A stretch of 64,000 nt of DNA, taken from assembly GCA_965206345.1 (NCBI GenBank), contig OZ242211.1, forward strand, positions 1,791,808 through 1,855,807, written 5' to 3'. The translations under genes and the position numbers were made by a program. This document shows, piece after piece, positions 10,651 through 31,348 of this stretch; the first letter of the stretch is position 1, and each line of letters begins with the position of its first letter. The DNA is from Arenicellales bacterium. GTDB taxonomy: Bacteria > Pseudomonadota > Gammaproteobacteria > Arenicellales > JAJDZL01. The notes beneath the pieces are model-generated. The model searched no databases. It saw only the letters and a program-made list of their open reading frames with translations, and was not told the origin of the DNA.

Positions 10651-11249
10651 ATGCTGATTGGCCACGCTCACGTTTCCACTGACGATCAAAGTCTGACACT
10701 ACAGCTAGATTCGCTTCGCGACTTCGGATGCGAGAGAATTTTCGAAGAAAAGCTCAGCGATTCAATTCGCCATCCAATTCTTGACAAAGCTCTTGAATTT
10801 GCCAGGGTTGGGATACCTTGGTAATAATATGGCGACTTGACCGACTAAGCCGCTCGTTGCGGGATCTGATTGACACTGTTGCACTGCTTGAATCTCAAGG
10901 AGTCCAACTAATGAGTATTCAGGAATCGATTGATACTACGACAAGTAACGGCAAACCTAATTTTTACCTGTTCGGCGCGCTAGCGGAGTTCGAACGGAAT
11001 TTAATCCGAGAAAAGACCGTGGCCGGACTGCAGGCCGCTCGTGCGCGCCGCCGCCGGTTTGGTCGACAACCCGCATTCGACAAGGTTATGCAGCATCGTG
11101 CTGTTGAACTGTATGAGAAACAGAGCCTCACGGTTCGCGAAATATGCGACTTGATGAATATCAGCAGGCCGACTCTCTACAAATATGTAAGAGCAGAATC
11201 TCAAATGAAAGAGACGCCCGACGATCAAGTGCATATGGCCGTCAGATAA
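10651..11249 (+). pseudogene. serine recombinase (resolvase/invertase family) inactivated by a single -1 frameshift
   Basis: The N-terminus MLIGHAHVSTDDQ (catalytic Ser context) runs to ...ARVG and then hits a stop. The reading continues in the -1 frame as DTLVIIWRLDRLSRS...LFGALAEFERNLIRE...ISRPTLYKYV (HTH). Restoring one G at 10810-10812 (GGG to GGGG) gives ARVGDTLV and a 199-aa protein. Confidence 0.85.
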
Positions 11250-15032: not shown

Positions 15033-15074
15033 TCCTGAATATCACCTGTAAACGAACTACAGCGCAACCAGGCT

Positions 15075-15098
15075 GATACAGAATCACCATTCTGTCTC
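15075..15098 (+). repeat. site S1 of the 24-nt near-palindrome family: GATACAGAAT-CACC-ATTCTGTCTC
   Basis: 7-bp perfect stem ACAGAAT/ATTCTGT. It is preceded by GGCTGA and followed by CTCATTT, as at S3. It lies 44 nt from the 3' end of the tRNA-like gene. Confidence 0.7.
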
Positions 15099-15141
15099 AT
15101 TTTCATCCATAAAACCGATGAACCAATTCATGAGGATGGAT

Positions 15142-15218
15142 TGGTGCCGGTGAGAGGACTTGGACCTCCGACCTGTCAATAACGAATCGGCTGCTCTGCC
15201 AGTCTGAGCTACACCGAC
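15142..15218 (-). tRNA. tRNA-Thr(CGU)-like gene with non-canonical features (possible pseudo-tRNA or element-borne tRNA)
   Basis: A hand-folded 77-nt cloverleaf has a 7-bp acceptor stem (one G-U), a GCTC/GAGC D stem, the anticodon loop TTCGTTA, a 5-nt variable loop, a GGAGG/CCTCT T stem and an encoded CCA. Anomalies are a C28-A42 mismatch, T at position 37, and the T loop TCCAAGT (C55 instead of the invariant U55). Confidence 0.55.
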
Positions 15219-15339
15219 TTGGTACAGACGTGAGCAGAGTAGCGCAGTTTAATCAGATTATTTCACATTCCCAAGATCAAAATTTCAATTTACTAAGGCA
15301 AATTCACAGTATCGTAAATACCTATTCTACTTGTAGTTG

Positions 15340-15966
15340 TCATTTAGGCTTGAGAACACCCATGAGCTTCACCCTTTCTGCCTTGGCGAAGTCAGCAGGT
15401 GCGATGAATCCGCTAGGGTCGTGTGGGATGTGAATCCCCAGTTTCCGATAACACTCCCATACATATTCCGAGCAGATGAATTCTCGGTCCGGCTTGAAAA
15501 TATTTGCAAACTTCTTAGTAAAAGGTAGGTAAGATGCTCCGATGCGAGCGGCAATTTTGACGATCTCATCCTTGTCATAGGGGTAGCCGAACAGGTCGAT
15601 GGCGAACTGCCCAAACTCACGTAAATTCTTCTTGTTGGCCAAGATGGAAAAGTCACTGTGACGGGCTATAGCGACCCCACCAGGATATGGATTCCCTTTA
15701 CTGTCATAATCGACGAGGTACTTACGCAAGGGGACGGTGCGTACGCCCAACGGCTCGACGCTTTCCAATACCATCACCCGGTCTATGGCGTCCAACCGCA
15801 TTACAAATCCCACATGGCTCCAGGTGCTCCCAGTCGCCGCCTGAATCATGCGGGAAAATATACCAGATCCGGAACAAAGCAGGAGATCACCGGATTTTAT
15901 TTTGGGCCGGAAATTACTGTATTTGGTTATCGCCCTCGTCGGGAATCTCTTAATTGGAGTTTTCAT
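15340..15966 (-). CDS. YiiX/DUF830-like permuted papain-fold (NlpC/P60-superfamily) protein
   Basis: 208 aa from the ATG at 15966, which follows AGAGGG. The His context STWSHVGFV and the downstream Cys context REFICSEYVWECY appear in the permuted order typical of the YiiX family. The family assignment rests on pattern recognition only. Confidence 0.6.
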   Translation of the reverse strand: MKTPIKRFPTRAITKYSNFRPKIKSGDLLLCSGSGIFSRMIQAATGSTWSHVGFVMRLDAIDRVMVLESVEPLGVRTVPLRKYLVDYDSKGNPYPGGVAIARHSDFSILANKKNLREFGQFAIDLFGYPYDKDEIVKIAARIGASYLPFTKKFANIFKPDREFICSEYVWECYRKLGIHIPHDPSGFIAPADFAKAERVKLMGVLKPK

Positions 15967-16044
15967 TGTTTGCCCTCTCTTTTCAAGTTCAAAATTTCTT
16001 GTAAATTGGCATTTTATTGGTTTCTCGGCAAACCTATCGTTTGT

Positions 16045-16067
16045 GAAACAAATGTCCATACTGTCTC
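16045..16067 (+). repeat. site S2 (degenerate): GAAACA_AAT-GTCC-ATACTGTCTC
   Basis: Same architecture as S1 and S3, with a 1-nt deletion and one substitution. It is followed by CTCATTT and about 165 bp homologous to the S3-to-int interval. Confidence 0.6.
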
Positions 16068-16253
16068 ATTTGATTGCACGCTTGAGTCAATATCCATTGT
16101 CAGTCGGACTGATACAAGTATCTGCAGCGGGCTGATGCAAAACAGTAAATTTATCGTACTGTGTCTACCGAAGGAAACATCACACTGGTCTATCAGCGTG
16201 GCCTGTGGTTACAGGCTGGATCAAAATCAGTTACGAAAACAACTACAGCGCAA
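16068..16253 (+). pseudogene. remnant of a second copy of the small tyrosine recombinase (leader + first ~14 codons only)
   Basis: 16045-16210 aligns by eye at about 70% with 18034-18200. The in-frame translation VSTEGNITLVYQRG compares with VSDDGIISLVDWRG of the intact gene. Homology then stops and the 13-mer AACTACAGCGCAA (16241-16253) follows. Confidence 0.55.
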
Positions 16254-16330
16254 TCGCCTCAAAATCAAGTAAGCTTTTGGAAATGTTGATATACTCATAA
16301 CATGATGATGGCATACATTCATTTGTAGAA

Positions 16331-16753
16331 GTGAGTGAAGCAAAAGAACCTAAAGGCGAACATATAAAAACCCGCAATTGCTCGTGTCGTGATGGTGGAG
16401 GATGGGATAGACTCATCAATCAAGTGACAGATGTTTGGTTTAATGACAATTTCAACGATTGGAAGTCACCTCGTCGGTTTTGCTTTGCTCTTTTGGGCTC
16501 GCTTAGCTTAGCTGTTTTCTTAGTTCCCGCTATAAAGGAAAGAATTGCTGAACAGCTGCCTACATTATTCTCCGACCCGGCACTTGAAACAGTCGAATCA
16601 ACATTCAGCTCTATATTCGTTATAGGATTGTCATTATTCTTTGCCGGAATTGTGAGTTGGCGCAACGAAAAGTCTGGTCCTGTAAGGATGTATCTCGCTG
16701 GGCTTACACTACCAGCTCTCGTATGGTTCATTGTTGAGCGTACCGTTAATTAA
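16331..16753 (+). CDS. hypothetical integral membrane protein (3 predicted helices)
   Basis: 140 aa with a GTG start. Hydrophobic segments are FCFALLGSLSLAVFLVPAI, IFVIGLSLFFAGIVSW and YLAGLTLPALVWFIV. It ends 5 nt before the next ORF. Confidence 0.5.
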   Translation: MSEAKEPKGEHIKTRNCSCRDGGGWDRLINQVTDVWFNDNFNDWKSPRRFCFALLGSLSLAVFLVPAIKERIAEQLPTLFSDPALETVESTFSSIFVIGLSLFFAGIVSWRNEKSGPVRMYLAGLTLPALVWFIVERTVN

Positions 16754-16758
16754 ATGAA

Positions 16759-17499
16759 ATGAAATTTCGAGTTATACCTATAGCGATAGTACTGACGCTT
16801 GTTATCGGCAACGGACACGCACAAGATCAGGACAGCGTATCAGCGGCGACTGTGTTGCATGCAAACCATGCCGAATTAAATTTACTGGATATATTGGCCG
16901 CTGGCCGGGACTTACTGATTAAACCTTCCCGTGTAAGTGATTACTGGCCCGAGTATCGTTACAGCTATAGTGCGGTAGTTGATGCGTTTTCAGGAGATTC
17001 AACGGACGGTGAATCGCTTTGTGACATCGCAAGTAGAGATGCAGATTCCGGTGACTTTAATCTTGGGACAATTGCCGTTTTTTGGGGTGAGCCTAGTGAA
17101 GAAGAGGGGAGTAGAAGCAGAAACGATCAATCTTTAATTGGTTGGCCGATCGTGACTGAAGTTGATCTTGATACTTCGGGGGATATTACTTGGAGTGCAA
17201 ATGACAATAGTTGGAGTCTTGATTTTCGAGAATTCTGTGGGGGAATAGAGGCCATCGAATCCGCAGTAAACAATGGATACAATCTGCCCAATCTGGTGAA
17301 TACGAACGTAGGCGGAGTCAAAGGGATTAATATTGATGCCGCAACCGCAACCCTTGATCACATTTCTGTGTCAATTGGAGAATCTGAAATCAATCGCCAG
17401 AAATTATATTTCGTAACTTCTCAAGCGCTTCCGGATCAAAACCTCGAATTTGAACGCGTGCGAATTCAACCTTTACCACAGAATAGACTAATCAACTAA
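16759..17499 (+). CDS. hypothetical secreted acidic protein
   Basis: 246 aa with the signal peptide MKFRVIPIAIVLTLVIGNGHAQ. No recognisable domain. Confidence 0.55.
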   Translation: MKFRVIPIAIVLTLVIGNGHAQDQDSVSAATVLHANHAELNLLDILAAGRDLLIKPSRVSDYWPEYRYSYSAVVDAFSGDSTDGESLCDIASRDADSGDFNLGTIAVFWGEPSEEEGSRSRNDQSLIGWPIVTEVDLDTSGDITWSANDNSWSLDFREFCGGIEAIESAVNNGYNLPNLVNTNVGGVKGINIDAATATLDHISVSIGESEINRQKLYFVTSQALPDQNLEFERVRIQPLPQNRLIN

Positions 17500-17891: not shown

Positions 17892-18033
17892 CTACATATG
17901 GCGTCAAAACCCGTCTGCTGGCCGAAGTCTGGACACCGTTGGGTAAAACGGTCCCGTAGCTAATTGACACTTAACAGCCGGTTGCCGATGGTGACTGGTG
18001 CGAAAGTCCGTTCTGTATGTTGAGAGGGTGGCT

Positions 18034-18057
18034 GAAACAGAATTGTCATTCTGTCTC
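18034..18057 (+). repeat. site S3 (best copy): GAAACAGAAT-TGTC-ATTCTGTCTC
   Basis: 7-bp perfect stem plus 2 outer pairs. It lies about 85 nt upstream of the recombinase start and is preceded by GGCTGA and followed by CTCATTT. Confidence 0.7.
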
Positions 18058-18141
18058 ATTTGGCTGCAGGCCCTACTCAAATTCCTTTGTCGACCGGTCT
18101 GATACAAGTGTTTTCACCATGCTTGTGCGATACAGTACACT

Positions 18142-18741
18142 GTGCGTATTGTGTCTGACGACGGAATCATCTCACTGGTCGATTGGCGTGGCCGCAAGTA
18201 CCTCACTGCGGTCGAGCGGCAGCGTTTTGTGAAGGTGGCACAAACCGATCCAATTCCTGCGGTCCAGACTTTTACGCTGGCTCTAACCTACACCGGTTGC
18301 CGGATATCCGAGGCGCTGGCGGTGCGCCATTGCGACGTTGACCTGGATAACCTGGCAATTCGATTCAAAACGCTAAAACGCCGCCAGGATGTGTGGCGGG
18401 AGGTGGCGGTTCCCCAGGATCTGATTCGAGCCATCGATCTGGTACACTCGGTACGTGCAGCGCAAAGCCGACCGCGAAGAGCGGCCCGAAGACTGTGGAA
18501 ATTCAGTCGGTCAACCGCTTCGAGACACGTCAAGCGTTTAATGGCCTCGGCTGATATCGAGGGGCCTCAGGCGTCGGCTAAAGGATTGCGCCATGGCTTT
18601 GGTGTAGCCGCCATCGAGGCAGGTGTGCCGCTGCCGACCATCGCTGCGGTGCTTGGGCATGCCAATATCGAAACCACTGCAATTTACACCACGGCCATCG
18701 GCATGGAAGCGCGCGAACAGCTGGCCAGGATGTGGCGGTAG
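18142..18741 (+). CDS. compact tyrosine recombinase (catalytic domain only, FimB/FimE size class)
   Basis: 199 aa. Motifs are TGCRISEALAV (Arg I), GLRHGFGVAAI (H-x-x-R) and LGHANIETTAIYT (His + catalytic Tyr). There is no N-terminal arm-binding domain. Two 60-nt spot counts give 53% and 60% GC, against about 40% in the flanking cargo. Confidence 0.85.
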   Translation: MRIVSDDGIISLVDWRGRKYLTAVERQRFVKVAQTDPIPAVQTFTLALTYTGCRISEALAVRHCDVDLDNLAIRFKTLKRRQDVWREVAVPQDLIRAIDLVHSVRAAQSRPRRAARRLWKFSRSTASRHVKRLMASADIEGPQASAKGLRHGFGVAAIEAGVPLPTIAAVLGHANIETTAIYTTAIGMEAREQLARMWR

Positions 18742-18790
18742 TTACAAATCAATAGGTCGAGGTACTTGGAACTTCAAATAGGAAAACTGA

Positions 18791-19303
18791 ATGATGAAAC
18801 ATTTTAGTCGGTTGTTTGGGCGAATTCATAACGAAGAAGACCCATGGAGTTTAATTGCTATCTTCATTGCTTTCATTACGTTTGTCGTTTGCTTGGGTTG
18901 GTATTATTTCAATGTAGAATTGCGAACTTCTGCAGACAGTGACATACTCGGTATCTTAATTGCGGCCAGTATTGTCATAATTTTCTTCGTACTCACCAAA
19001 ATATTAGCAATTACCGTTCACTGGCTAACGGGTCGGAAAAAAGAAAAACCACAAAGGGATATGTTCAAAAGCCTGGGAATTGAAGAAAAGGCTGCTGTGA
19101 AAGAGTTTGTTGATATTGGACGCGAATATATGATTCGGCAAGAAATATCCGATTTGCCTCGAAACTCTGTATCTGGGATGGAATCACTGCTTCAACGAGA
19201 AATAATTCGGCACTCTCCCACAAGTGGTTACAAGAGCGAAGTATTTGTTTTGAATCGTAAACTATACAACTACGCCAGAAAACCTATTTACTTGCAAACA
19301 TAA
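18791..19303 (+). CDS. two-helix membrane protein, possibly superinfection-exclusion SieB-like
   Basis: 170 aa. It has two N-terminal TM helices, a basic stretch GRKKEKPQR, then FKSLGIEEKAAVKEFV...LLQREII. This matches the L-S-x-E-E-K...L...E-F pattern I associate with the SieB family (PF14163). That is a recollection, not a search result. Confidence 0.45.
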   Translation: MMKHFSRLFGRIHNEEDPWSLIAIFIAFITFVVCLGWYYFNVELRTSADSDILGILIAASIVIIFFVLTKILAITVHWLTGRKKEKPQRDMFKSLGIEEKAAVKEFVDIGREYMIRQEISDLPRNSVSGMESLLQREIIRHSPTSGYKSEVFVLNRKLYNYARKPIYLQT

Positions 19304-20001
19304 ATTTCTTCATCGCACCCGGAAAATTTCTCTAACTTTAACTGATTGTCGTTCAACTCAACAACAATTTTGTTACCTTCTTCTTTGAACTTGAGGCATT
19401 TCTGTCGATCCTCGATTTGATCAAGTATACGCAACACGGGATTTCTGCGCGGAAACCCCCAATTGGCTTGATAGACGACTTTGCTCCCAGGTTTGTAAGC
19501 ACGGAAATTCATGACCTTTTTTCTAATATCTTCTGATATTTCAAACTGTATTCCGTCTTCTTTTTGAACTCCGAACTGATCTTCGTAAAAACTAATAATC
19601 GTCCCAATAGTATCGCATGGATCAAGTGTAATACTATCGGCGTATTCTGCCTGTCCACTCGCACCATAGAACGGACGAAAATATAAAACAACTACTAACA
19701 GGATAGCGATACCACCAAAGGCCTTCAAATCTATGCCATATAGAGAGGTTTTTATTTTTATCATGCCGCCCACAACCCAAACGCCTGCCACTGCGATGAG
19801 CAAGCCAAGAAGTGCATCGGCAAGCGTGGCTTTTGCGGTTCCAGGCGGTACTCCTAACACGTAGATAAACAGAGTCAACAGTACTAGAAGCACTGCGCAG
19901 ACAACCAATCCCTGAACTGTGCCCTTTGAAAACCCGCGCTTCTGTGTCACCTGGTTTGAGGCAGCGGTTGTCGGCCGTTTATCCTTTTTTTCATTAGCCA
20001 T
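19288..20001 (-). CDS. hypothetical membrane protein (3 TM helices + ~110-aa soluble C-terminal domain)
   Basis: 237 aa. It starts 10 nt downstream of the preceding minus-strand ORF and converges with 18791-19303, overlapping it by 16 nt. Confidence 0.55.
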   Translation of the reverse strand: MANEKKDKRPTTAASNQVTQKRGFSKGTVQGLVVCAVLLVLLTLFIYVLGVPPGTAKATLADALLGLLIAVAGVWVVGGMIKIKTSLYGIDLKAFGGIAILLVVVLYFRPFYGASGQAEYADSITLDPCDTIGTIISFYEDQFGVQKEDGIQFEISEDIRKKVMNFRAYKPGSKVVYQANWGFPRRNPVLRILDQIEDRQKCLKFKEEGNKIVVELNDNQLKLEKFSGCDEEIYVCK

Positions 20002-20010
20002 GGCGACACC

Positions 20011-20715
20011 CTAATAAAAATTCATTGACCGCAAGCAATCGCTGAAATTGCCAACGTCTGTGGCTATGTAGGTATCAGAGTTTCCATATCCGATACAACC
20101 ACCTCCAAAGAATAATATACCGTTTGAATAGTGAGTGTTATCGACCAGAGTGGATGTGCACATTTTAGTTGCAACTTTGTTTGTAATTACTGCTTCGACA
20201 AGCGAAGAAATAGCCTCAGAATCTGACATGAGAGAAACGCTGCCTTCATCGTCAAACGTCAGTAGCGGGCTAATCAACAACATGACGAGGTCGCTCAATT
20301 CGACCGATTCTTGTCTCCTGCAACGCCACTCCAGATTGATGATATATTGGGCCGATGTGAAACGCTCGGCAAGTTCTCTTGAAATGGGAGAATCAAAGTC
20401 AAAGGGATTAGCATCGTGAGTGAAACTCGCCCAGTAATTTTCGTTGAATATTGGCACTAGCGTACTTTCCAAACGTTCAATTCCAAGCGATAAATTGTTC
20501 CCGAATCGCTGGTGCAACCTGGCAGTAGAGTTTTTGGACTCTATGAGGGTGCAGTGATTATTACTCCATATTTTGCTACAAATGTTTGAGACCTTTGCGC
20601 TCGCATTGCCAATCTCGGGATTGCAATCGCATGTTCCGCCGAATACTATGGCACTTCCTGACAATGCTAACGTTGCGATGGTTAGGATACGGATAAACAT
20701 AATATGACCTTTCAA
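20011..20715 (-). CDS. hypothetical secreted Cys-containing protein
   Basis: 234 aa. The signal peptide is FIRILTIATLALSGSAIVFG, followed by GTCDCNPEIG. No family recognised. Confidence 0.55.
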   Translation of the reverse strand: MKGHIMFIRILTIATLALSGSAIVFGGTCDCNPEIGNASAKVSNICSKIWSNNHCTLIESKNSTARLHQRFGNNLSLGIERLESTLVPIFNENYWASFTHDANPFDFDSPISRELAERFTSAQYIINLEWRCRRQESVELSDLVMLLISPLLTFDDEGSVSLMSDSEAISSLVEAVITNKVATKMCTSTLVDNTHYSNGILFFGGGCIGYGNSDTYIATDVGNFSDCLRSMNFY

Positions 20716-20967
20716 AGGAGTTAACGATGTAAACAGCGATAATAATTCATTTATTCAAGTTTCTCAATTTAGTCGATCTGGCCAAACTCTAATCCAAAAA
20801 ATCTTCACACTACTAATTGCTCCAACAATTAAAACCGCAAATACAGTATGCAATACGTACAACTACCCAGGAAATTAGTTAGAACGTTCAAACGTGCGAC
20901 AACCGCTGAACACACGTGTGGAAACCATCGATTGCTGACAGATCATCCCCATTCTTTCCGTCTAGGT

Positions 20968-20991
20968 GAAACCTAATGGCAATTCTGTTTC
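20968..20991. repeat. site S4: GAAACCTAAT-GGCA-ATTCTGTTTC (reverse complement GAAACAGAAT-TGCC-ATTAGGTTTC)
   Basis: It matches S3 at 18/24 as written and at 20/24 as the reverse complement, where one arm is 10/10 and the spacer 3/4. Orientation is therefore probably inverted but not certain, because the site is nearly palindromic. Confidence 0.5.
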
Positions 20992-21523
20992 AAACTCGGC
21001 GAGTAAATTTCAAGTTACATTCGAGCGGGCGATTGTACAAAATAAACAGCTGCGTTAAATCGTGTGATCTCCGCTCAAAGCACGTGTGGTCGGCCGTTCA
21101 TCGCTGCGCGGCTGCAGGCACAGGAGGCCTACAATGAGCAACCAGAAATGATCCTTACATAGATGACGAAATACTTTAGGGTGAAAGAATTCTGGTCTGG
21201 ATTCAGGGAGATTCAATTTAGCTATACGAACTACAGGATCTACAGGATAAAGGCGATATTGTTATTTACACTTGTTTACAATGGAGTGCAATTGATGGAA
21301 ATTCCAAAAGAGAAATTGCTGATTTGGATGGAGAATGTCTTAGTTTCAAATACTATCGTCGCGTTGTTGGAATCGAAATCAAAGTAGCAAAAATTATTTT
21401 GTTCACCATCGCACTACCCGCACTCAGACGGCAGGAGGCGAACTGAACTGTTTTTTTTGGTGTCTGGGGGAATTAGTAACTATACATCTCAAGCAATATT
21501 AACGTTTCGCATTGAGTAGAAAC

Positions 21524-22468
21524 ATGGCAAATAATACCGTACACGAAATCGTTGTTTATATCCACGGAGTTTCAACGGATGTTAAAGAAAAATCGCACGA
21601 TGAGAACTATTCAAATTTTCACAATGGTGTTCGTAAGTTAATTAAATCGGGCTGGCCTGTCAGATACTGCGGAGTAGAGTGGGGAGCGAATCTGGAATCA
21701 TCACAAACTCCAGAAAATCACCAGTTGTTAACTGTAGCTCAGCGAAATTTGGGCGGACGGGTTATGCCATGTGTGGACGAAGCCAGCGACTTCACCGTTA
21801 ATCCTGCTAGATTAGCCGCAAATGGATTTAGAAAACTGGCGTTTTATGGTTTCGGTGATATGTTCTATTACGTTTCACTTGACGGCAAGCTAGCAGTTCG
21901 CTCTGCTACCGCAAGAACAATAGTTAACTACATTTTTGAAAAGAATATCAATGCCGACGATATGATTTCGCTGACGATCGTAGGTCACTCTGCCGGATCA
22001 GTTATCGCATTTGATTTTCTTTTTTACCTTTTTTCTGAACATAGAGATGCCTGCGACTTTGTCCACAGAGACCAGGATACCAAAGAAGCGCTGAAGAATC
22101 TTGAGCAAAGAACCAAGGACAAAAATTTACGCTTACGAAGATTAATTACTATCGGTTCACCTATTACGTTCGTAGCTTGTAGAAGTAATGCAGTTCTGGA
22201 AATTTTGTCAGGTGGAAATCAGTTGAATCCCATTCATTATGGTCTAAATTCTGAACTCCAAACAGGAAAGCCGTTGGTAGGTCCTCGATGGATCAACATA
22301 TGGGATAAAGATGACCCCATCTCTTGGCCAGTTGAACCCCTGATGGGTAATCCGCATGATAAATTAGTTAAGGATGAGTATTGCGATGTATCGGACAGAG
22401 TTACCAAAGCGCATAATGAATATTGGTATAGTTCCAAGGTACACAAGATAGTTAGATCCTACTGGTAG
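21524..22468 (+). CDS. alpha/beta-hydrolase-fold serine esterase/lipase-like protein (orphan)
   Basis: Motifs are IVVYIHGV (oxyanion region), the nucleophile elbow IVGHSAGS, the acid candidate WDKDDPISW and the His candidate TKAHNEYW. The start is taken at the ATG at 21524; the track uses the TTG at 21512. Confidence 0.7.
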   Translation: MANNTVHEIVVYIHGVSTDVKEKSHDENYSNFHNGVRKLIKSGWPVRYCGVEWGANLESSQTPENHQLLTVAQRNLGGRVMPCVDEASDFTVNPARLAANGFRKLAFYGFGDMFYYVSLDGKLAVRSATARTIVNYIFEKNINADDMISLTIVGHSAGSVIAFDFLFYLFSEHRDACDFVHRDQDTKEALKNLEQRTKDKNLRLRRLITIGSPITFVACRSNAVLEILSGGNQLNPIHYGLNSELQTGKPLVGPRWINIWDKDDPISWPVEPLMGNPHDKLVKDEYCDVSDRVTKAHNEYWYSSKVHKIVRSYW

Positions 22469-22514: not shown

Positions 22515-23112
22515 AATATTGTGTTAGCAATCGTCAGTGAGCAAATTGGTTCTTTAGTTTCTTACTCGAAATAAGGAGTGGATGTAACTGCTCTATGAAG
22601 AGAAAAACCATTGCTTAGACTTCTATCTCTGAATTTGTATAGACCTGAGTATTCATTTTCAAGAAAATTGGAGACCTCGCTGACGACACCCTTGTAGATT
22701 GGCGATTTGATCATCTCAGCCGGTCGCATTGAGATTTAATTGTAACTGTCGCAATGCTTGAATCTCAAGGTGTCCAATTAATGAGCCTTCAGAATCGCTT
22801 GATTCGACTACAAGTAATCGCAAACTAAATTTTCACCTGTTCGGAGCGCTGGCGGAGTTTGAACAGAACTTAATCCGCCAAAGGATAGTAGCCAGACTTC
22901 AAGCGGCGAGAGAGAGGATATCGCTTTGACCGTCCACCCGCACTCGACAGATCAATGCAGCGATGTGCGGTTGGACTGTAGAAAAGAAAAATCTAAAGGC
23001 ACGCAAAATCTGTGAGTGAATCAAAATCTGCAAACCAACCCTCTACAAGTATGTCAAAGAGGTGGTTCAAAATAAAGAGAAACTCAAGATGAGTAGATGT
23101 GCAGATAGATAG
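22515..23112 (+). pseudogene. second, heavily decayed serine recombinase gene (same orientation as 10651-11249)
   Basis: Colinear with resolvase 1 across frames: VSEQ..., LYEEK, ADDTLVDWRFDHLSRS, MLESQGVQLMSLQ, HLFGALAEFEQNLIRQ, PTLYKYVKE. Several stops and frameshifts interrupt it. Confidence 0.65.
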
Positions 23113-23343: not shown

Positions 23344-24114
23344 ATGGTTGGACAAGTCGGTCGTACAAAATGGGACGCAGTTTACTTAGTTTTAAGAAAT
23401 CCGCGGCTGTATATTCCAATTTTCATCTTCTTAGGCCTTGTCATTGGTGTGTTTGGTTTTACGCTTCTCAGTGGACTCACGAATTGTTCGGCTATTGATG
23501 GCAGCATATCATGCTCTCGTACCGGTTCGGTTCTCGTTGAGCGAAATCACATTACATTAATTGGGGGTTCGAACAGCAGCTGCAAAGAATTAGTTGCAGT
23601 TCCACCCTTTCTAACGTCTGTAGTACGTTACGGTGGAATAACAGGCGTTGATTTTCAGACTGCATTTGCAGAGATCTTTTCCGCTGCTTTAGGCGATGGT
23701 CGATATCGTTCTGTGCTGATAGACCCTTATCCAAGCGCAGAAAGTCAAAAAGAAAGAGAAAAACTGCTTGCAAATCTTACTGTAGCCGAAGCTATGCGTC
23801 ATTCGAAAGATAAATTAGCAAAATACAGCGATGTAGCAGATCAGAAAAAGGGAGTACTAGTAGGCCACATCTACGCTTTAAGTGATGAGCGCAGAGACAC
23901 TGGAGACCCTGCCACGGTCTTCGCAACATTTCGTATGATGAATTTGGATGGTAGCATAGCTTGGCAAGCTGCGCAGTTGCTTGCTATTGAATCGGTGCCA
24001 CCTATCGTCACAAAAGTTAGAGATATAGGGGGTGTTGGTGGATTTGAAGCTGCCTTCGTTATGGTAAACGATTTGATCCTTAACATCGATTCCGAAATCT
24101 CATGTCGGCAGTAA
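23344..24114 (+). CDS. hypothetical N-terminally anchored membrane/periplasmic protein
   Basis: 256 aa with one TM helix (LYIPIFIFLGLVIGVFGFTLLSG). No family recognised. Confidence 0.5.
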   Translation: MVGQVGRTKWDAVYLVLRNPRLYIPIFIFLGLVIGVFGFTLLSGLTNCSAIDGSISCSRTGSVLVERNHITLIGGSNSSCKELVAVPPFLTSVVRYGGITGVDFQTAFAEIFSAALGDGRYRSVLIDPYPSAESQKEREKLLANLTVAEAMRHSKDKLAKYSDVADQKKGVLVGHIYALSDERRDTGDPATVFATFRMMNLDGSIAWQAAQLLAIESVPPIVTKVRDIGGVGGFEAAFVMVNDLILNIDSEISCRQ

Positions 24115-24312
24115 GTCTGTTGCGTATCAGCTGAAGTGTTGGCGGAGGTAGATTGCTCTCGAAACACTCTTGCAGCGCGAATTCCCGATGTCGTACTGAG
24201 CAATCGTAATAAAGGATTATCTTTTAGTTACGTTTTATCTCGCCACCCACGATCAGAATTTGATAATTGGTGTGGACAAATATTAAAATTTGCAGAACAG
24301 AAAAAATTTAGC

Positions 24313-24357
24313 TTTCTAATCAGCAGATCGGAGGTCCAATCCTCCCGACGCTCCACC
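24313..24357 (+). other. degenerate tRNA 3' fragment (anticodon-loop-like TTTCTAA, Arg-TCT-like)
   Basis: The T arm GGAGG-TCCAAT-CCTCC is followed by CGACGCT-CCA. No 5' half is present. The T loop shares the odd TCC with the tRNA-like gene at 15142-15218. Confidence 0.3.
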
Positions 24358-24376
24358 TATGTCGGTTGGTTGGCCT

Positions 24377-24426
24377 ACTGACTTTTAATCAATTGGTCCG
24401 GGGTTCGAATCCCTGACGGCCCACCA
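24377..24426 (+). other. tRNA-Lys(UUU) 3' fragment (anticodon arm to CCA), likely att-site relic
   Basis: ACTGA-CTTTTAA-TCAAT-TGGTC-CGGGG-TTCGAAT-CCCTG-ACGGCCC-A-CCA closely parallels E. coli tRNA-Lys from position 27 onward. The upstream 26 nt cannot form an acceptor or D arm. Confidence 0.7.
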
Positions 24427-25026: not shown

Positions 25027-25383
25027 ATGGAAAACGGTATTCTGGTTTCCAAGGACTTCATGCGCTATGCGCGGAAAAAACCAATGCCGGTCCCGCTAGA
25101 CCACCTCAAAGCCCTTTCGAAAAGCCCAAGACGCATGGATCTTTACATTTGGCTGTTAAACAGGGATTACTGCGTCAGAAAGAACCCGGTCCGCGTTCCC
25201 CTAGTTTCGCTGCACGAGCAGTTCGCACCGGAAATTGATCCCTGCCACCACTGCTGGTTCAAAAGCAAGCTGAAGAGAGACCTAGCGTCAATTCGGGACG
25301 TCTATCAAAGATTCAATATCGAAGTTTCTTCCAGCAACCGGACCGTTTACGCTTCAATTCCTCCTGTAGATCCGCACCGTTAA
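25027..25383 (+). pseudogene. RepA_C-like plasmid replication-initiator fragment (N-terminally truncated)
   Basis: In this 118-aa ORF, SPRRMDLYIWLLNR...VRVPLVSLHEQFAPEI...FKSKLKRDLASIRDVYQRFNIEV...ASIPPV follows the pattern I recall for PF04796 proteins. It is far shorter than full-length RepA. Confidence 0.5.
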
Positions 25384-26040: not shown

Positions 26041-26859
26041 TTGAACTCCTCCGTTTAAGTTAGTCGTATTACGCCGGAGCGTGAATTAAGGAAGTTATGC
26101 AGTACCCTGATTGCTTTGCTTCAATGACACCAACACACCCCGACAACAGTAAATATACTGTCAATGAGCTATCAACCTATTCTGCCGGTTCAGTCTCTGA
26201 CCATACTATGTCTGTGTGCTGTGGATTTTCTTCACAGGGGACTATATTCTCGAACATTCTCTGGTCGTGCTTTGATTTTGTATTCGATAAGTTCAAGTAT
26301 AAATTAGTAATCTGGAACCCTAATCCAATGAAAAGGATACCCCATCGGTAAATATGCGATGATAGTTACCGGAATGGGAATGAACCAAAAAGTGTTAAAA
26401 CTTTTAAACGGAGGTATCCAATTGGAAACAATACCAGAAAATACGATCACTCTACGTGCTGTATGTGGATCGGCACGAAACCTGACTTGTACCCTTTGAA
26501 AATTCACAGTATTTGTCTTTGTTGTGAACAACAGATTCATCGTTTGCTCGTTCTGCCTTGAGTTCAAGTTGCTCCAACCATGAATCATGATCGAAACCTG
26601 GATGAAAGTTTGCAGGCACTGTGTGCCCAAAAGTACCGTATTTGTGACCAATCGCTTCGTAGTTCTTGAAAAAGGCTGTAAACACGTTGCCAATATTTCT
26701 TTATGTTGACCCAAATTCAAATGATTATTCAAGGTGCTCGGTCACGGTTGGAATGTAGTGGAGGGACTGAATTTGTGAGAGGAATGATTGTAGAATGAAA
26801 TGGAACAGATCTTTAGAAGCTGGTGCCAACGCACTCACTTGCGACAATCTGCCTAAATT

Positions 26860-28436
26860 AGTCGGCCCTGAATAAACCAATATTCGCCAGTATATCATTG
26901 TTACCATTGACTATTGTCATCATTTGAACTGTTCTGAAATTGCCGGAAACGATATAATTGCCCATCATTTCCCTGCAATTTCGAGAATAAAAATGAAGCC
27001 TCACTCAGCCCGCAATGAAGACCAGTCCGAGCTGTTCCGAAGCCGACTTGACAGCCAGATCAACATGAACCATGAACTGGTTCGGCTGTCATCCCTGATC
27101 GACTGGAGCGTGTTCGATGACCGGTTCGGCACCCTGTATCACGCCGACAGGGGCAGTCCTGGAAAACCCACCCGTCTGATGGTGGGACTGCTGTATCTGA
27201 AGCACATTCACAGGCTGTCCGATGAGCAGTTGGTTCATGGCTGGCTGGAAAATCCGTACTGGCAGTACTTCTGTGGCGAGAGTCACTTTCAGACCGAGTG
27301 GCCGATTGATCCGAGTTCGCTGACGCGCTATCGCCAGCGCATTGGTGACAGTGGCTGTGAATGGCTGCTGCAGCAGACGATACAGGCGGGAATGAAAAGT
27401 GGTGCGGTTCGAAAGTCGCATCTGAAGCGGGTGACGGTGGACACCACGGTGCAGGAGAAGGCGGTGAGATTTCCGACCGACGGCAGGCTGCTGAACCGGT
27501 CCCGGGAACGTCTGGTGAAGCTGTGTCATCAACACGGTGTGGGGCTGCGTCAGAGTTATGCGCGGGTGGGTCCGCGGTGTCTGATTCGTGCCAGTAACTA
27601 CGCGCATGCGCGCCAGAGCCGGCGGATGCGCCGCCAGATTCGAAAGCTGCACACCTTTCTGGGACGGGTGGTGCGCGACATTGAACGGAAGATCAGTGAT
27701 GACGATCAGCTGCAGCAGATCTTTGCTGATGAGCTGGCGATGGCGAAAAGAGTGCTGGCACAGAAAAAGGACAGTTCCAACAAGCTTTACAGTCTGCATG
27801 CACCGGAGGTGGAGTGCATCAGTAAGGGCAAGGCGCACAAACGCTATGAGTTTGGCGTCAAGGCCAGCATTGCGGTTACAAACCGCAGCAGTTTCGTGGT
27901 CGGTGGTCTGGCCCTGCCGGGCAATCCGTTTGACGGTCATACGCTGAAAACAGCCCTGGATCAGGTTCGCAGGTTAGGTGGACAGCGCATCGAGGAGGTG
28001 TATGTGGACCGCGGTTACCGCGGTCACGATGAAACGGACAGTGCGGTGTACATCTCGGGGCAGAGGCGCGGGGTGACGGATCGAATCAGACGGTGCATGA
28101 AGCGTCGTCAGGCGATCGAGCCGGTCATAGGACATCTGAAGCAGGATGGCTGGCTGGGGCGCAATCACCTGAAGGGCACTGAAGGTGACAGTGTGAATGT
28201 GCTGCTGAGCTGTGCCGGACACAATCTGCGTCTGATCCTGAAGCGATTGAGGGGCCAGTGTGCCCGTATTTTTTGTCGCTCGGTTCATGGCCGGATTATT
28301 CGGCTCAAACGGGTACTGCCGGGTGTGAATTACCGTTTTCTGGCGCTGAGCGCAGCATAAGGGCTTTGCTGCTTGAGAATGCCCGACGCTGATCGCTTCG
28401 AATATCGACTGAAAACCGGATTTTTCAGGGCCGACT
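26860..28436 (+). mobile_element. IS5-family (IS4/IS5 superfamily) insertion sequence, 1577 bp
   Basis: Perfect 13-bp terminal inverted repeats AGTCGGCCCTGAA / TTCAGGGCCGACT. They are flanked by the direct repeat AAATT (26855-26859 and 28437-28441). Spot GC is about 55%, against about 35-40% in the surroundings. Confidence 0.85.
26993..28360 (+). CDS. IS5-family DDE transposase
   Basis: 455 aa from the ATG at 26993. The N-terminal region is ELFRSRLDSQINMNHELVRLSSLIDW...PGKPTRLMVGLLYLKH. The C-terminal part has VDRGYRGH...RQAIEPVIGHLK, which is the Y-2-R-3-E-6-K signature. Confidence 0.85.
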   Translation: MKPHSARNEDQSELFRSRLDSQINMNHELVRLSSLIDWSVFDDRFGTLYHADRGSPGKPTRLMVGLLYLKHIHRLSDEQLVHGWLENPYWQYFCGESHFQTEWPIDPSSLTRYRQRIGDSGCEWLLQQTIQAGMKSGAVRKSHLKRVTVDTTVQEKAVRFPTDGRLLNRSRERLVKLCHQHGVGLRQSYARVGPRCLIRASNYAHARQSRRMRRQIRKLHTFLGRVVRDIERKISDDDQLQQIFADELAMAKRVLAQKKDSSNKLYSLHAPEVECISKGKAHKRYEFGVKASIAVTNRSSFVVGGLALPGNPFDGHTLKTALDQVRRLGGQRIEEVYVDRGYRGHDETDSAVYISGQRRGVTDRIRRCMKRRQAIEPVIGHLKQDGWLGRNHLKGTEGDSVNVLLSCAGHNLRLILKRLRGQCARIFCRSVHGRIIRLKRVLPGVNYRFLALSAA

Positions 28437-28604
28437 AAATTAACTGAGGCCATCAGGGCAGCATCCGTATCACTTCTGAACGCAAAGCACTTGCATCTGA
28501 TGTATCCAATAAATTAAACGTGATTGATTATTTCTCCTGTTTCAAATTCATGACTAACCACAGCAAGCGAAAGGGCTATAGTCGACATGGATTACCAGCC
28601 AACC

Positions 28605-29272: not shown

Positions 29273-29725
29273 ATGCTGCTGAAGATTTATCATCAAATGC
29301 CGCCAATCATCGCGGGCATCGCTCTGGCAAAGGCAGTTGCACTTCTCGTTGGAATTATCGTTTTTTTACTGCTCCCATGGTTTGTGCCTGATATTGACCC
29401 GATCGCGCGCTGGGCTCTGCTCTTCTGGTACCCCACGATCGCTGGTGTTGCAGCCGCATCCAATATTGCTGATTTGGTTGATATTAAATTTATGCGGTGG
29501 CAATGGTGGCAACGTTCAGTGCTGATCGGAGCATGGCTGAATTTGATTGTGACACTATTTGCCTCCGACACCATGCAAGACTACTCGATGCTGGTTCAAT
29601 TGAGTTTCGGCGTGCTGAGCTCTCAATTCTGGTTTGTTGGCGATGGTGCAATTGTCGGACTGATTGCAGGTTTCACCTCAACTAGGGTCCAACAGCGCGA
29701 CAAATGGAGTTATTGTCAAATCTAG
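29273..29725 (+). CDS. hypothetical 4-helix membrane protein whose stop codon was displaced by the IS256-family insertion
   Basis: 150-aa ORF. The last 6 codons (WSYCQI*) are encoded by the IS end. Without the IS the frame reads ...QQRDK-TGA. Confidence 0.5.
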   Translation: MLLKIYHQMPPIIAGIALAKAVALLVGIIVFLLLPWFVPDIDPIARWALLFWYPTIAGVAAASNIADLVDIKFMRWQWWQRSVLIGAWLNLIVTLFASDTMQDYSMLVQLSFGVLSSQFWFVGDGAIVGLIAGFTSTRVQQRDKWSYCQI

Positions 29726-31104
29726 TGCGTGACGGGGGTCAAAAAAAGAGCGGCGTATCTGGTTAAATGTAAGTTGAACAAATTTACAAACCAACCAGAG
29801 AGGTACGCCACTAATGGATAAGGATAACGTAATTTCATTTCAGACGCACGATTATTTTGAAGATCCGCTGACCGAAGCGATACGGGACGGGGCGAGGAAG
29901 CTGCTGGCCTGTGGATTGGAGGCTGAGGTGAGTGAGTTTCTGCGGCGCTATGAAGATCAGCGCGGCGAGAACGGGCTGCGGGCGGTGGTTCGCTCTGGTT
30001 ACCAGCCCGAGCGACAGATTCAGACCGGGGTTGGACCGGTGACGGTGAAGGTTCCGAAGGTTCGCTCGAACACTGCGGAGCCGGTGTCGTTTCGTTCCAG
30101 TCTGATTCCGCCGTATGTGCGAAAGAGCCGGTCGGTGGAAGCTTTTGTGCCGTGGCTGTACCTGAAGGGTGTCAGCAGCGGCGAGATGGCTGAGGCGATG
30201 AAAGTGCTGCTGGGTGCACCGGCTGAGGGTTTTTCGGCCTCCACCGTCACTCGGCTGACGCACGAGTGGCAGGCACAGATGCGGGAGTGGAAGCGGCGCG
30301 ACCTGAGTCAGGAACGGTTTGCATACATCTGGGCCGATGGGATTTACTGCGGATTGCGGGCTGAGGATGTGAAGCTTTGCGTGCTGGTGGTGATCGGGGT
30401 CAACGAACACGGGGAGAAGAAGTTTCTGGCGATTGAAGACGGGCAGCGGGAGTCGACCGAGAGTTGGCGCGAGGTGTTTCGGGATCTGAAACGGCGCGGC
30501 TTTGAGTCGCCCAGACTTGCAGTAGGCGATGGTGCACTGGGATTTTGGGGTGCACTCGATGAGCTGTATCCGGATACTGTGCATCAGCGCTGCTGGGTGC
30601 ACAAGATGTCGAACATCCTGAATCGGCTGCCCAAATCGGTGCAGATGCGCGCCAAGCCGGCGCTGCAGGAAATCTGGATGGCCGAAACCCGGGCGGATGC
30701 CAATCAGGCGTTTGATCGATTTATCGACACTTACCAGGATCGATATCCGCAGGCGGCAGACAATCTGCTCAGGGATCGAGAGGAGCTGATGGCGTTTTAT
30801 GATTTTCCGGCCAGACACTGGCAGAGCATTCGCACCACCAATCCGATTGAGTCGACCTTTGCCACGATCCGGCATCGGACCCGGCGCTCCAAGGGGTGTC
30901 TGAATCGAAACGGCATGCTGTGCATGATGTTCAAGCTGGCTCGGTGTGCGGAAACACGATGGCGCCGATTGCGCGGATTCAGGCAATTGGGACAGGTGAT
31001 TGAAGGGGTAAAATTCAAAGACGGAATCGAGGTAAACCAGTTATGTGACCAGGTCGCCGCTTGATGGCCACAAAACCGTCACGCACTAGATTTACCAATA
31101 ACTC
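29707..31104 (+). mobile_element. IS256-family insertion sequence, 1398 bp
   Basis: The terminal inverted repeats are GAGTTATTGtcAAATCTAGTGCGTGACGG on the left and the reverse complement GAGTTATTGgtAAATCTAGTGCGTGACGG on the right. A 9-bp direct target duplication CGACAAATG lies at 29698-29706 and 31105-31113. The element is high-GC relative to the host. Confidence 0.9.
29814..31064 (+). CDS. IS256-family (Mutator-type) transposase
   Basis: 416 aa. The sequence LEAEVSEFL...RSGYQPERQIQTGVGPVTVKVPKVR...YIWADGIY...QRCWVHKMSNILNRLPK...FPARHWQSIRTTNPIES is typical of the family. Confidence 0.9.
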   Translation: MDKDNVISFQTHDYFEDPLTEAIRDGARKLLACGLEAEVSEFLRRYEDQRGENGLRAVVRSGYQPERQIQTGVGPVTVKVPKVRSNTAEPVSFRSSLIPPYVRKSRSVEAFVPWLYLKGVSSGEMAEAMKVLLGAPAEGFSASTVTRLTHEWQAQMREWKRRDLSQERFAYIWADGIYCGLRAEDVKLCVLVVIGVNEHGEKKFLAIEDGQRESTESWREVFRDLKRRGFESPRLAVGDGALGFWGALDELYPDTVHQRCWVHKMSNILNRLPKSVQMRAKPALQEIWMAETRADANQAFDRFIDTYQDRYPQAADNLLRDREELMAFYDFPARHWQSIRTTNPIESTFATIRHRTRRSKGCLNRNGMLCMMFKLARCAETRWRRLRGFRQLGQVIEGVKFKDGIEVNQLCDQVAA

Positions 31105-31348
31105 CGACAAATGAAGTCGCAGTTGAATCACATGTTCAATAACTGGCATTCAAGACAGTCTGTGGTCAATAGTCGATTCATGAATGAACGGAAATTGACT
31201 TCGAATCCAGATGTTGCAACTTGTCAACGACAATAAAATGTGTATTGAATGATTTCTGAACAACTGAACAATTGAATGAATGTGAAACAGTTGCTCCGCT
31301 CAATTCTGCTCACTGTACTAGTTGTATGCACAAATTTCAGGAAACCTC

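Follow-up and report, generated by a model that had tools for sequence, protein, structure and literature searches.

SieB has been established by experiment as an abortive exclusion protein (PMC10883804). It halts macromolecular synthesis partway into the infection cycle and is antagonised by Esc (PMC10883804, PMC10002423), which in the P22 annotation is an in-frame product starting at sieB codon 25. Exclusion can also act at the envelope on the incoming phage, as in the case of P22 SieA (PMC10883804). At the level of genome organisation, small recombinases, mainly of the serine type, flag adjacent anti-phage systems (RADS; PLoS Biol 2026, PMC13552941), and defence enrichment has been found near some tyrosine recombinases too, in part those of Bacteroides (PMC13552941). 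Described here is a locus in a 64,000-nt stretch of an Arenicellales chromosome (contig OZ242211.1; this whole stretch is referred to as the window), in which three open reading frames (ORFs), P1, P2 and P3, lie downstream of a Xer-like tyrosine recombinase gene and between two inverted copies, S3 and S4, of a dyad-symmetric site (Table 1). We give about even odds to the view that the DNA between these sites belongs to a 2.96-kb recombinase element whose cargo comprises two independent units, P1 and the P3-P2 pair, both of which are candidates for an anti-phage function.

A preliminary description of this DNA had placed the three ORFs directly downstream of the recombinase, at 18791-20715, and they were found there (Table 1). 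They are genuine genes and not chance ORFs, because homologues exist elsewhere: 13 relatives were recovered for P1, 11 for P2, and for P3 one by protein search and seven more by tblastn adjoining P2 homologues. The cargo genes have GC contents of 0.39-0.44, compared to 0.59 for the recombinase. Hydropathy and AlphaFold2 (AF2) models agree on two transmembrane (TM) segments in the 170-aa P1 and three in the 237-aa P2, as had been described, and P3 shows a single N-terminal signal-like segment and eight Cys residues by hydropathy and sequence. P3 had been described as a secreted, Cys-containing protein of 234 aa; the character stands and the length is probably smaller, as the start is likely the ATG at 20700, which is preceded by AAAGG and gives a product of 229 aa, the same form as in the public protein collection. 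Likewise, P3 and P2 do form an operon convergent to P1, with a spacing of 9 nt in place of the 10 nt given earlier. P1 and P2 are themselves convergent and share a 16-nt overlap at their 3' ends.

P1 and the SieB lineage

A word-indexed homologue search with P1 recovered only P1 itself, and the 13 relatives (E from 2e-30 to 3e-4) come from an exhaustive phmmer search of 1.8 billion representatives. The closest of these, P0011, is 49% identical to P1 and is encoded elsewhere on the same 3.19-Mb contig. The 14-member family thus assembled conserves a RIYxExD motif ahead of the membrane, a pair of TM helices, then a basic linker, and at the C terminus a domain with the motif LFxxLGxEExAVVxxFVxxGG...ESLxxRxL. 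A resemblance of the C-terminal half of P1 to SieB had been noted previously, and it holds as remote homology. Against the Pfam SieB profile (PF14163), which had been proposed as a check, P1 itself scores 22.0 bits (E=1.3e-4), a match that does not reach the gathering cut-off of 26 bits, and 9 of the 14 family members match the profile independently at E<=0.01 (best 4e-6). A hidden Markov model (HMM) of the P1 family detects the reference SieB sequences of P22 (P=1e-6), lambda (P=7e-6) and EcoS-673R7 (P=7e-7) in the same register throughout, with none of 300 composition-preserving local shuffles per target reaching the real score. Alignment of the family to the three SieB sequences together by hhalign yields a probability of 92.4% (P=5.2e-7) over P1 residues 63-148, a region spanning TM2, the linker and the winged helix, and at a relaxed threshold the alignment, with P22 SieB included, is collinear end to end; the hhalign comparison to lambda SieB alone is weak (15% probability).

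The AF2 model of P1 (pLDDT 82 overall and 93-96 in the C-terminal domain) consists of a membrane hairpin, a long juxtamembrane helix and a winged-helix domain, for which the nearest PDB neighbours are CodY-C, MarR/OhrR and SarA (probability 0.9-1.0, E ~1e-2). A Foldseek search of BFVD with this model returned generic small winged-helix proteins alone and no named SieB, and the fold search is therefore no test of SieB membership. In hydropathy and model alike, the order of parts (N-terminal segment, two TM segments, basic linker and C-terminal soluble domain) matches that of SieB. The hairpin is N-in and C-in and tethers a cytoplasmic winged-helix domain, and P1 as a whole is a divergent, remote but genuine member of the SieB lineage.

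Among the relatives examined for their genomic surroundings, P0012 has PDC-S20 (1.4e-96) on one side and a fused PARIS AriAB (1e-58) on the other, with insertion sequence (IS) elements and a resolvase nearby, and P0016 is a solitary gene next to IS elements. The one metagenome match in this context scan was discarded as a false positive, as it fell inside an unrelated 322-aa gene.

The recombinase element and the surrounding island

The recombinase is a catalytic domain alone. Its nearest solved structure is the XerA catalytic domain (5hxy, 2e-11), and in the alignment to this protein the Arg of YTGCRISE and the LRH, LGH and IYT motifs are kept while the first His of HxxR is replaced by Lys. 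The N-terminal SAM-like core-binding domain is missing: the protein is 199 aa in length, its ORF has no upstream extension, and its relatives measure 196-199 aa. About 80 nt upstream of the recombinase start is S3, a 26-nt site with the sequence TGAAACAGAATTGTCATTCTGTCTCA. The interval from S3 to its inverted copy S4, reported previously, is real, as a search with the site pattern found five strand matches at three loci in the window against 0.00 expected from shuffles. The conserved inner flank of S4-type ends follows the consensus ATTnGGTTTCA-CCTAG-n4-AAAGAA.

The limits of the element were set by comparison to other genomes. A genome scan with the recombinase found four sister loci (L001-L004) in metagenome-assembled genomes (MAGs) of Arenicellales and related Gammaproteobacteria, with 75-92% protein identity. 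Nucleotide homology to the window begins precisely at the first base of S3 (18033) in L002 and L004 and ends at the recombinase stop codon (18735-18753) in all four, none of which contains a P1, P2 or P3 gene; S4-type ends in the same inverted orientation terminate unrelated cargo in L001 and L004. Because of these homology limits and recurring ends, S3 to S4 is a bounded unit of 2.96 kb, of which P1, P2 and P3 are the whole cargo. The window, L001 and L004 thus share the arrangement of a dif-like module, with an S3-type site, a recombinase and an inverted S4-type end enclosing unrelated cargo. A reading of the S sites as plain terminators, prompted by the T runs after S1 and S3, was rejected, as it fails to explain the exact homology breakpoints and the conserved inverted S4 ends.

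The earlier idea of recombinase-linked defence cargo is strengthened by what the sister modules carry. Downstream of the recombinase are found, in L002, an Mrr_cat nuclease and Shedu SduA (PADLOC, 1.3e-141); in L003, the KAP NTPase PDC-S20 (1.9e-120); in L004, a restriction-modification system comprising a XamI restriction endonuclease (REase; 5e-111), the methylase MTase_II (2.7e-130) and the methyl-directed REase mREase_II (5.5e-42); and in L001, a small membrane protein related to the 140-aa protein encoded elsewhere in the window and a secreted protein. The units run from about 4490 to 6910 in L001, from 7139 to about 11665 in L004 and from 9842 to 14426 in L002. The family as a whole consists of 3-4.5 kb units with an S4 inner flank conserved over ~45 nt and several copies per genome. 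On the contig of the window, outside the window itself, there is a second recombinase, P0006, at least 90% identical to the first.

The inverted orientation of S3 and S4, evident from their asymmetric centres (TTGTCA vs TTGCCA) and from their flanks, would also suit an invertible phase-variation switch that alters how the cargo is read from outside promoters. Among the classical invertases are tyrosine recombinases of ~200 aa that have no N-terminal domain, FimB and FimE for example. We consider a switch quite improbable, given that the same end architecture brackets differing cargo in three genomes, which favours a cassette or mobile unit, and that no locus in the opposite orientation was seen. 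Furthermore, the segment contains a candidate promoter for P3, and the way in which the recombinase and P1 genes are arranged also suggests expression from within, so that inversion would have no obvious regulatory consequence; the promoter is a consensus match, and sites of this kind are no more numerous in the region than in shuffles.

Table 1. Features of the S3-S4 element and of its neighbourhood, in window coordinates
Feature	Position	Strand	Remarks
Whole element	18033-20992		S3, recombinase, cargo, inverted S4
S3	18033-18058	+	left end of element; 11-nt arms TGAAACAGAAT / ATTCTGTCTCA, 4-nt centre
Recombinase	18142-18741	+	Xer-like tyrosine recombinase, 199 aa; Pfam Phage_integrase 2.5e-20
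P1	18791-19303	+	170 aa; remote SieB-family homologue
P2	19288-20001	-	237 aa; 3-TM inner-membrane protein, second gene of operon
P3	20011-20700	-	229 aa; secreted, Cys-rich, first gene of operon; maximal ORF to 20715 (234 aa)
Candidate sigma-70-like promoter	20739-20767	-	TTGAGA-17-TATTAT, 10/12; upstream of P3
S4	20952-20992	-	right end of element; inverted site (20967-20992) and inner flank, ATTAGGTTTCA-CCTAG-n4-AAAGAA
S1	15074-15099	+	direct site copy, 43 nt from 3' end of tRNA gene
tRNA-Thr(cgt)	15142-15218	-
S1-S2 interval	15074-16069		holds tRNA-Thr(cgt) and C92 amidase gene
S2 and recombinase remnant	16044-16203	+	direct site copy at about 16044; 147-nt remnant of recombinase 5' region
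S2, remnant and following gene pair	16044-17499
140-aa and 246-aa genes	16331-17499		membrane and secreted protein, 5 nt apart
93-nt repeat, copy 1	10830-10922
93-nt repeat, copy 2	22700-22792
318-aa protein	21512-22468		weak lipase/DDHD-like matches
256-aa protein	23344-24114		membrane-anchored
Non-coding repeat	24215-24391
RepA_C fragment	25027-25383		plasmid replication protein remnant
IS5/DUF772-type transposase	26854-28442		32-nt inverted repeats
IS256/Mutator-type transposase	29706-31105		30-nt inverted repeats

Upstream of the element, S2 and the recombinase remnant that follows it mark a sister element in tandem, now decayed, which carries the pair of 140-aa and 246-aa genes. This envelope pair recurs: at 10717-12182 of L001, a membrane protein 36% identical to the 140-aa protein and a secreted protein lie directly after the recombinase. 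The interval between S1 and S2 contains tRNA-Thr(cgt) and the gene of a C92 (YaeF/YiiX-type) amidase, and a position inside such a site-bounded interval is odd for an integration-target tRNA.

Housekeeping genes occupy the window to ~10.6 kb and again from ~31.3 kb, and the island between them, which contains an S8 protease, resolvase remnants, a RepA_C fragment and two IS elements, is a mosaic of mobile genetic element (MGE) debris. A prophage was ruled out as the island has no phage genes, and a classical integrase island was rejected, the locus being an inverted-end element of 3 kb set within a mosaic island. The two copies of a 93-nt repeat (77% identity) encode the serine-recombinase motif WRLDRLSRSLRDLIDTV... 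and represent remnants of a resolvase or invertase gene at two island positions. A non-coding repeat of ~80-130 nt found in the window and in the Arenicellales MAG locus L001 (7953-8031, 12747-12878 and 14442-14518; 81-92% identity) may be a small repeat element. The 318-aa protein just beyond S4 and the 256-aa protein after it lie in the same low-GC stretch, and neither matched a defence family.

These surroundings bear on the proposal that none of the cargo is anti-phage, with P1 being a membrane-tethered winged-helix regulator or other membrane protein that shares only ancestry with SieB and with the genes as neutral passengers of a decaying element. Many recombinase copies are degenerate (a frameshift in L004, a deletion in L003, a truncation in L001 and the remnant at S2), the island is littered with IS elements and with RepA and resolvase fragments, the similarity to SieB is remote, and a winged helix is most often found in regulators that bind DNA. 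The recombinase and the three cargo ORFs of the window are nevertheless all intact, the N-terminal motif and the winged helix are conserved across 14 distant members of the P1 family, and the defence context is consistent in sister elements and around relatives, which makes wholly neutral cargo decidedly unlikely.

The P3-P2 pair and a possible anti-phage role

The 11 homologues of P2 are 42-55% identical to it and include proteins from a Deltaproteobacteria MAG and from Primorskyibacter. In all eight other loci recovered, a P3 homologue lies directly upstream of the P2 homologue; the junction is equally short in seven of these, and in L010 the genes overlap by 1 nt. A relative of P1 was found within 8 kb of the pair in none of the eight, and P3/P2 is in turn missing beside the P1 relatives examined (L016-L019). 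The three genes had originally been presented as a trio, with co-occurrence in other genomes suggested as a check; they were not found together elsewhere. A single three-component exclusion system would agree with the containment of all three genes in one 2.96-kb element and with the overlap of the convergent P1 and P2 ends, yet P1 is encoded on the other strand from the P3-P2 operon, the genome has its second P1 paralogue outside the window, and P1 and P3/P2 relatives occur apart from each other. For want of co-occurrence, a three-gene system is essentially excluded, and P3/P2 is a compact, horizontally mobile two-gene operon independent of P1. Between most pairs of P3/P2 loci nucleotide homology is limited to the two genes, the exception being L011 and L012, in which it reaches ~50 nt upstream and ~360 nt downstream. 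No S-type sites were found flanking the pair in the other loci.

The P3 family has seven invariant Cys residues and the motif GTCxCxPEIxNASAKVTxSCSKIWSNNHCTLKE right after the signal sequence. At the N terminus of P3 (window 20630-20700) and in the family alignment, an invariant Cys follows the hydrophobic core of the signal, the pattern being A-G-[T/S]-C-[D/S/N]-C. If this is a lipobox of atypical form, as it may be, P3 would be a lipoprotein and not soluble in the periplasm. The P2 family combines Gly-rich TM helices with a C-terminal alpha/beta domain carrying two invariant Cys residues. As the N terminus of P2 is strongly basic and is followed by three TM segments, this domain should be periplasmic, like P3, with the N terminus in the cytoplasm. 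The AF2 model of P2 is confident in the C-terminal domain only (block-mean pLDDT mostly 85-92). Searches by tblastn with P2 and P3 against a plasmid collection, and with P2 against a phage collection, found no relatives.

Six of the P3/P2 loci have longer contexts, and four of these are rich in defence genes or MGEs. The pair has as neighbours Dsr1 (E=0) and an integrase in L006; PDC-S32 (5.6e-20, with an AbiJ-type N-terminal domain), HNH and recombinases in L011; HicAB, a resolvase and an integrase in L012; and IS21 and IS66 in L009. The other two are housekeeping neighbourhoods, with cobalamin genes in L008 and the Primorskyibacter locus L010. The latter fit an alternative in which P1 alone is anti-phage and P3-P2 is a passenger unrelated to phage, for instance a system of the periplasm for thiols, metals or stress, or a toxin that is secreted and paired with a membrane immunity protein. 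The conserved CxC and multi-Cys motifs, the order of a secreted followed by a small polytopic membrane protein and the 9-nt gap would suit toxin-immunity or metal-binding pairs, and the pair matches no defence family. A passenger is less readily reconciled with the four defence- or MGE-rich contexts and with the presence of the pair in an element whose sisters hold defence systems. In addition, the TM helices of P2 are no better conserved than its periplasmic domain, a pattern suggestive of binding to a partner and not of a simple immunity protein. We regard the passenger alternative as somewhat unlikely.

We return to the proposal that P1 and P3-P2 are two independent anti-phage candidates. 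A role of this kind is plausible because sister elements carry Shedu, restriction-modification and PDC-S20 systems and because relatives of both units sit in defence islands. For P1, to which homology and genomic association both apply, an anti-phage role by analogy to SieB is moderately probable; for P3-P2, to which association applies, it is possible at rather less than an even chance. By analogy with P22 and lambda SieB, P1 would act alone as an abortive-infection protein, its winged-helix domain sensing a phage product and its membrane and N-terminal part then shutting the cell down midway through infection. P3 and P2 would form an envelope complex that interferes with phage during entry or at the envelope, or else causes the membrane to fail.

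Several observations count against the proposal as a whole. The mechanism suggested for P1 is an analogy because, to our knowledge, that of SieB has itself been unsolved since the 1990s. The association evidence comes from a handful of loci without a matched background, and some sister cargo, namely the membrane and secreted proteins of L001 and the 140-aa and 246-aa genes of the window, is not recognisably defensive. In addition to its Pfam score below the cut-off, P1 is carried by a recombinase element of 3 kb and is not encoded in a prophage immunity region, and a pattern scan of IMG/VR found no relatives of its family. None of the three proteins matched PHROGs, or PADLOC (a search that had also been proposed) at E<=1, and a family-wide PADLOC scan gave nothing consistent; for P1 this negative is uninformative because the lambda SieB control, for which PADLOC has no model, also went without a match. 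PDB sequence searches with the P1, P2 and P3 family profiles found no match, and the P2 and P3 families showed no consistent Pfam or PHROG match, in line with the initial failure to recognise any other family in them. A Foldseek search of the PDB with the P2 model found no fold match (best E=0.67). The two housekeeping neighbourhoods among the six longer P3/P2 contexts belong with these points.

If P1 does protect against phage, the SieB lineage would extend from enterobacterial prophages to the chromosomal defence cassettes of uncultured marine bacteria. The P1 model, a membrane hairpin with a winged helix, offers a confident structural template for working out SieB action. A defensive P3-P2 would be a rare conserved periplasm-facing two-gene system, and the small Xer-like recombinase, with its S3/S4 ends, could be used as bait in the search for more defence cargo in metagenomes of Arenicellales and related ones. 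A broader proposal combines two novelties, with P3-P2 as an undescribed periplasmic and inner-membrane anti-phage system (a disulfide-rich sensor or blocker and its 3-TM partner) and the S3/S4 elements as a new family of self-encoded Xer-like "mini-recombinase" cassettes shuffling defence genes in marine Gammaproteobacteria; in this combined form we consider it unlikely. Should none of these proposals hold, the locus would amount to passenger genes in a decaying island.

Comparison with known systems

P1 resembles the SieB proteins of P22 and lambda in its size, which is in their range of ~170-190 aa, in being a single-gene unit, and in its succession of a short N-terminal segment, two TM segments, a basic linker and a helix-rich C-terminal domain starting L-x-x-L-x-x-E-E. 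It differs in having only ~20-25% identity to them over the aligned core, below the Pfam gathering score, and in being chromosomal cargo of a small recombinase element rather than part of a prophage immunity region. Only ATG starts being considered, P1 also has no internal start near codon 25 for an Esc-like product, the next Met being M91. Its host is a marine gammaproteobacterium, and P1 is known here from sequence alone. The P3-P2 pair can be likened to P22 SieA and to T4 Imm and Sp, which likewise effect envelope-level exclusion of the incoming phage, solely by its inner-membrane and periplasmic location; it resembles them in neither sequence nor fold and differs in being a conserved operon of two genes.

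At the level of the element, the Acinetobacter dif modules (pdif XerC/XerD) are similar in having short cargo between inverted dif-like dyad sites for Xer-type recombinases and in accumulating side by side. The element of the window differs in encoding its own single recombinase without an N-terminal domain, in having 11-nt arms around a 4-nt non-symmetric centre at S3 as opposed to an 11-6-11 site, and in being chromosomal in a different bacterial order; the comparison is one of sequence architecture, not of mobility. Integron cassettes with defence systems share the combination of a conserved recombinase with interchangeable, short and often defensive cargo. In the window, however, the recombinase has no IntI-specific extra domain, the sites are 26-nt dyads and not attC-like hairpins, and an inverted end closes off the cargo, which follows the recombinase gene, with each unit having its own recombinase copy. 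An integron was rejected on the absence of attC sites and of the IntI domain, IntI4 matching only the C-terminal catalytic part.

There is a parallel in organisation with RADS, in which, as here, a small site-specific recombinase lies directly beside variable defence cargo (Shedu, restriction-modification and KAP NTPase genes in the sister loci). The window differs in that its recombinase is a 199-aa Xer-like tyrosine enzyme and not a small serine recombinase, and in that its element has a defined site and end sequences bounding a 3-4.5 kb unit. The locus belongs to a known kind, the recombinase-flagged defence locus, and carries a SieB-lineage member that is new, divergent and not from a prophage, alongside a conserved but uncharacterised pair of genes.

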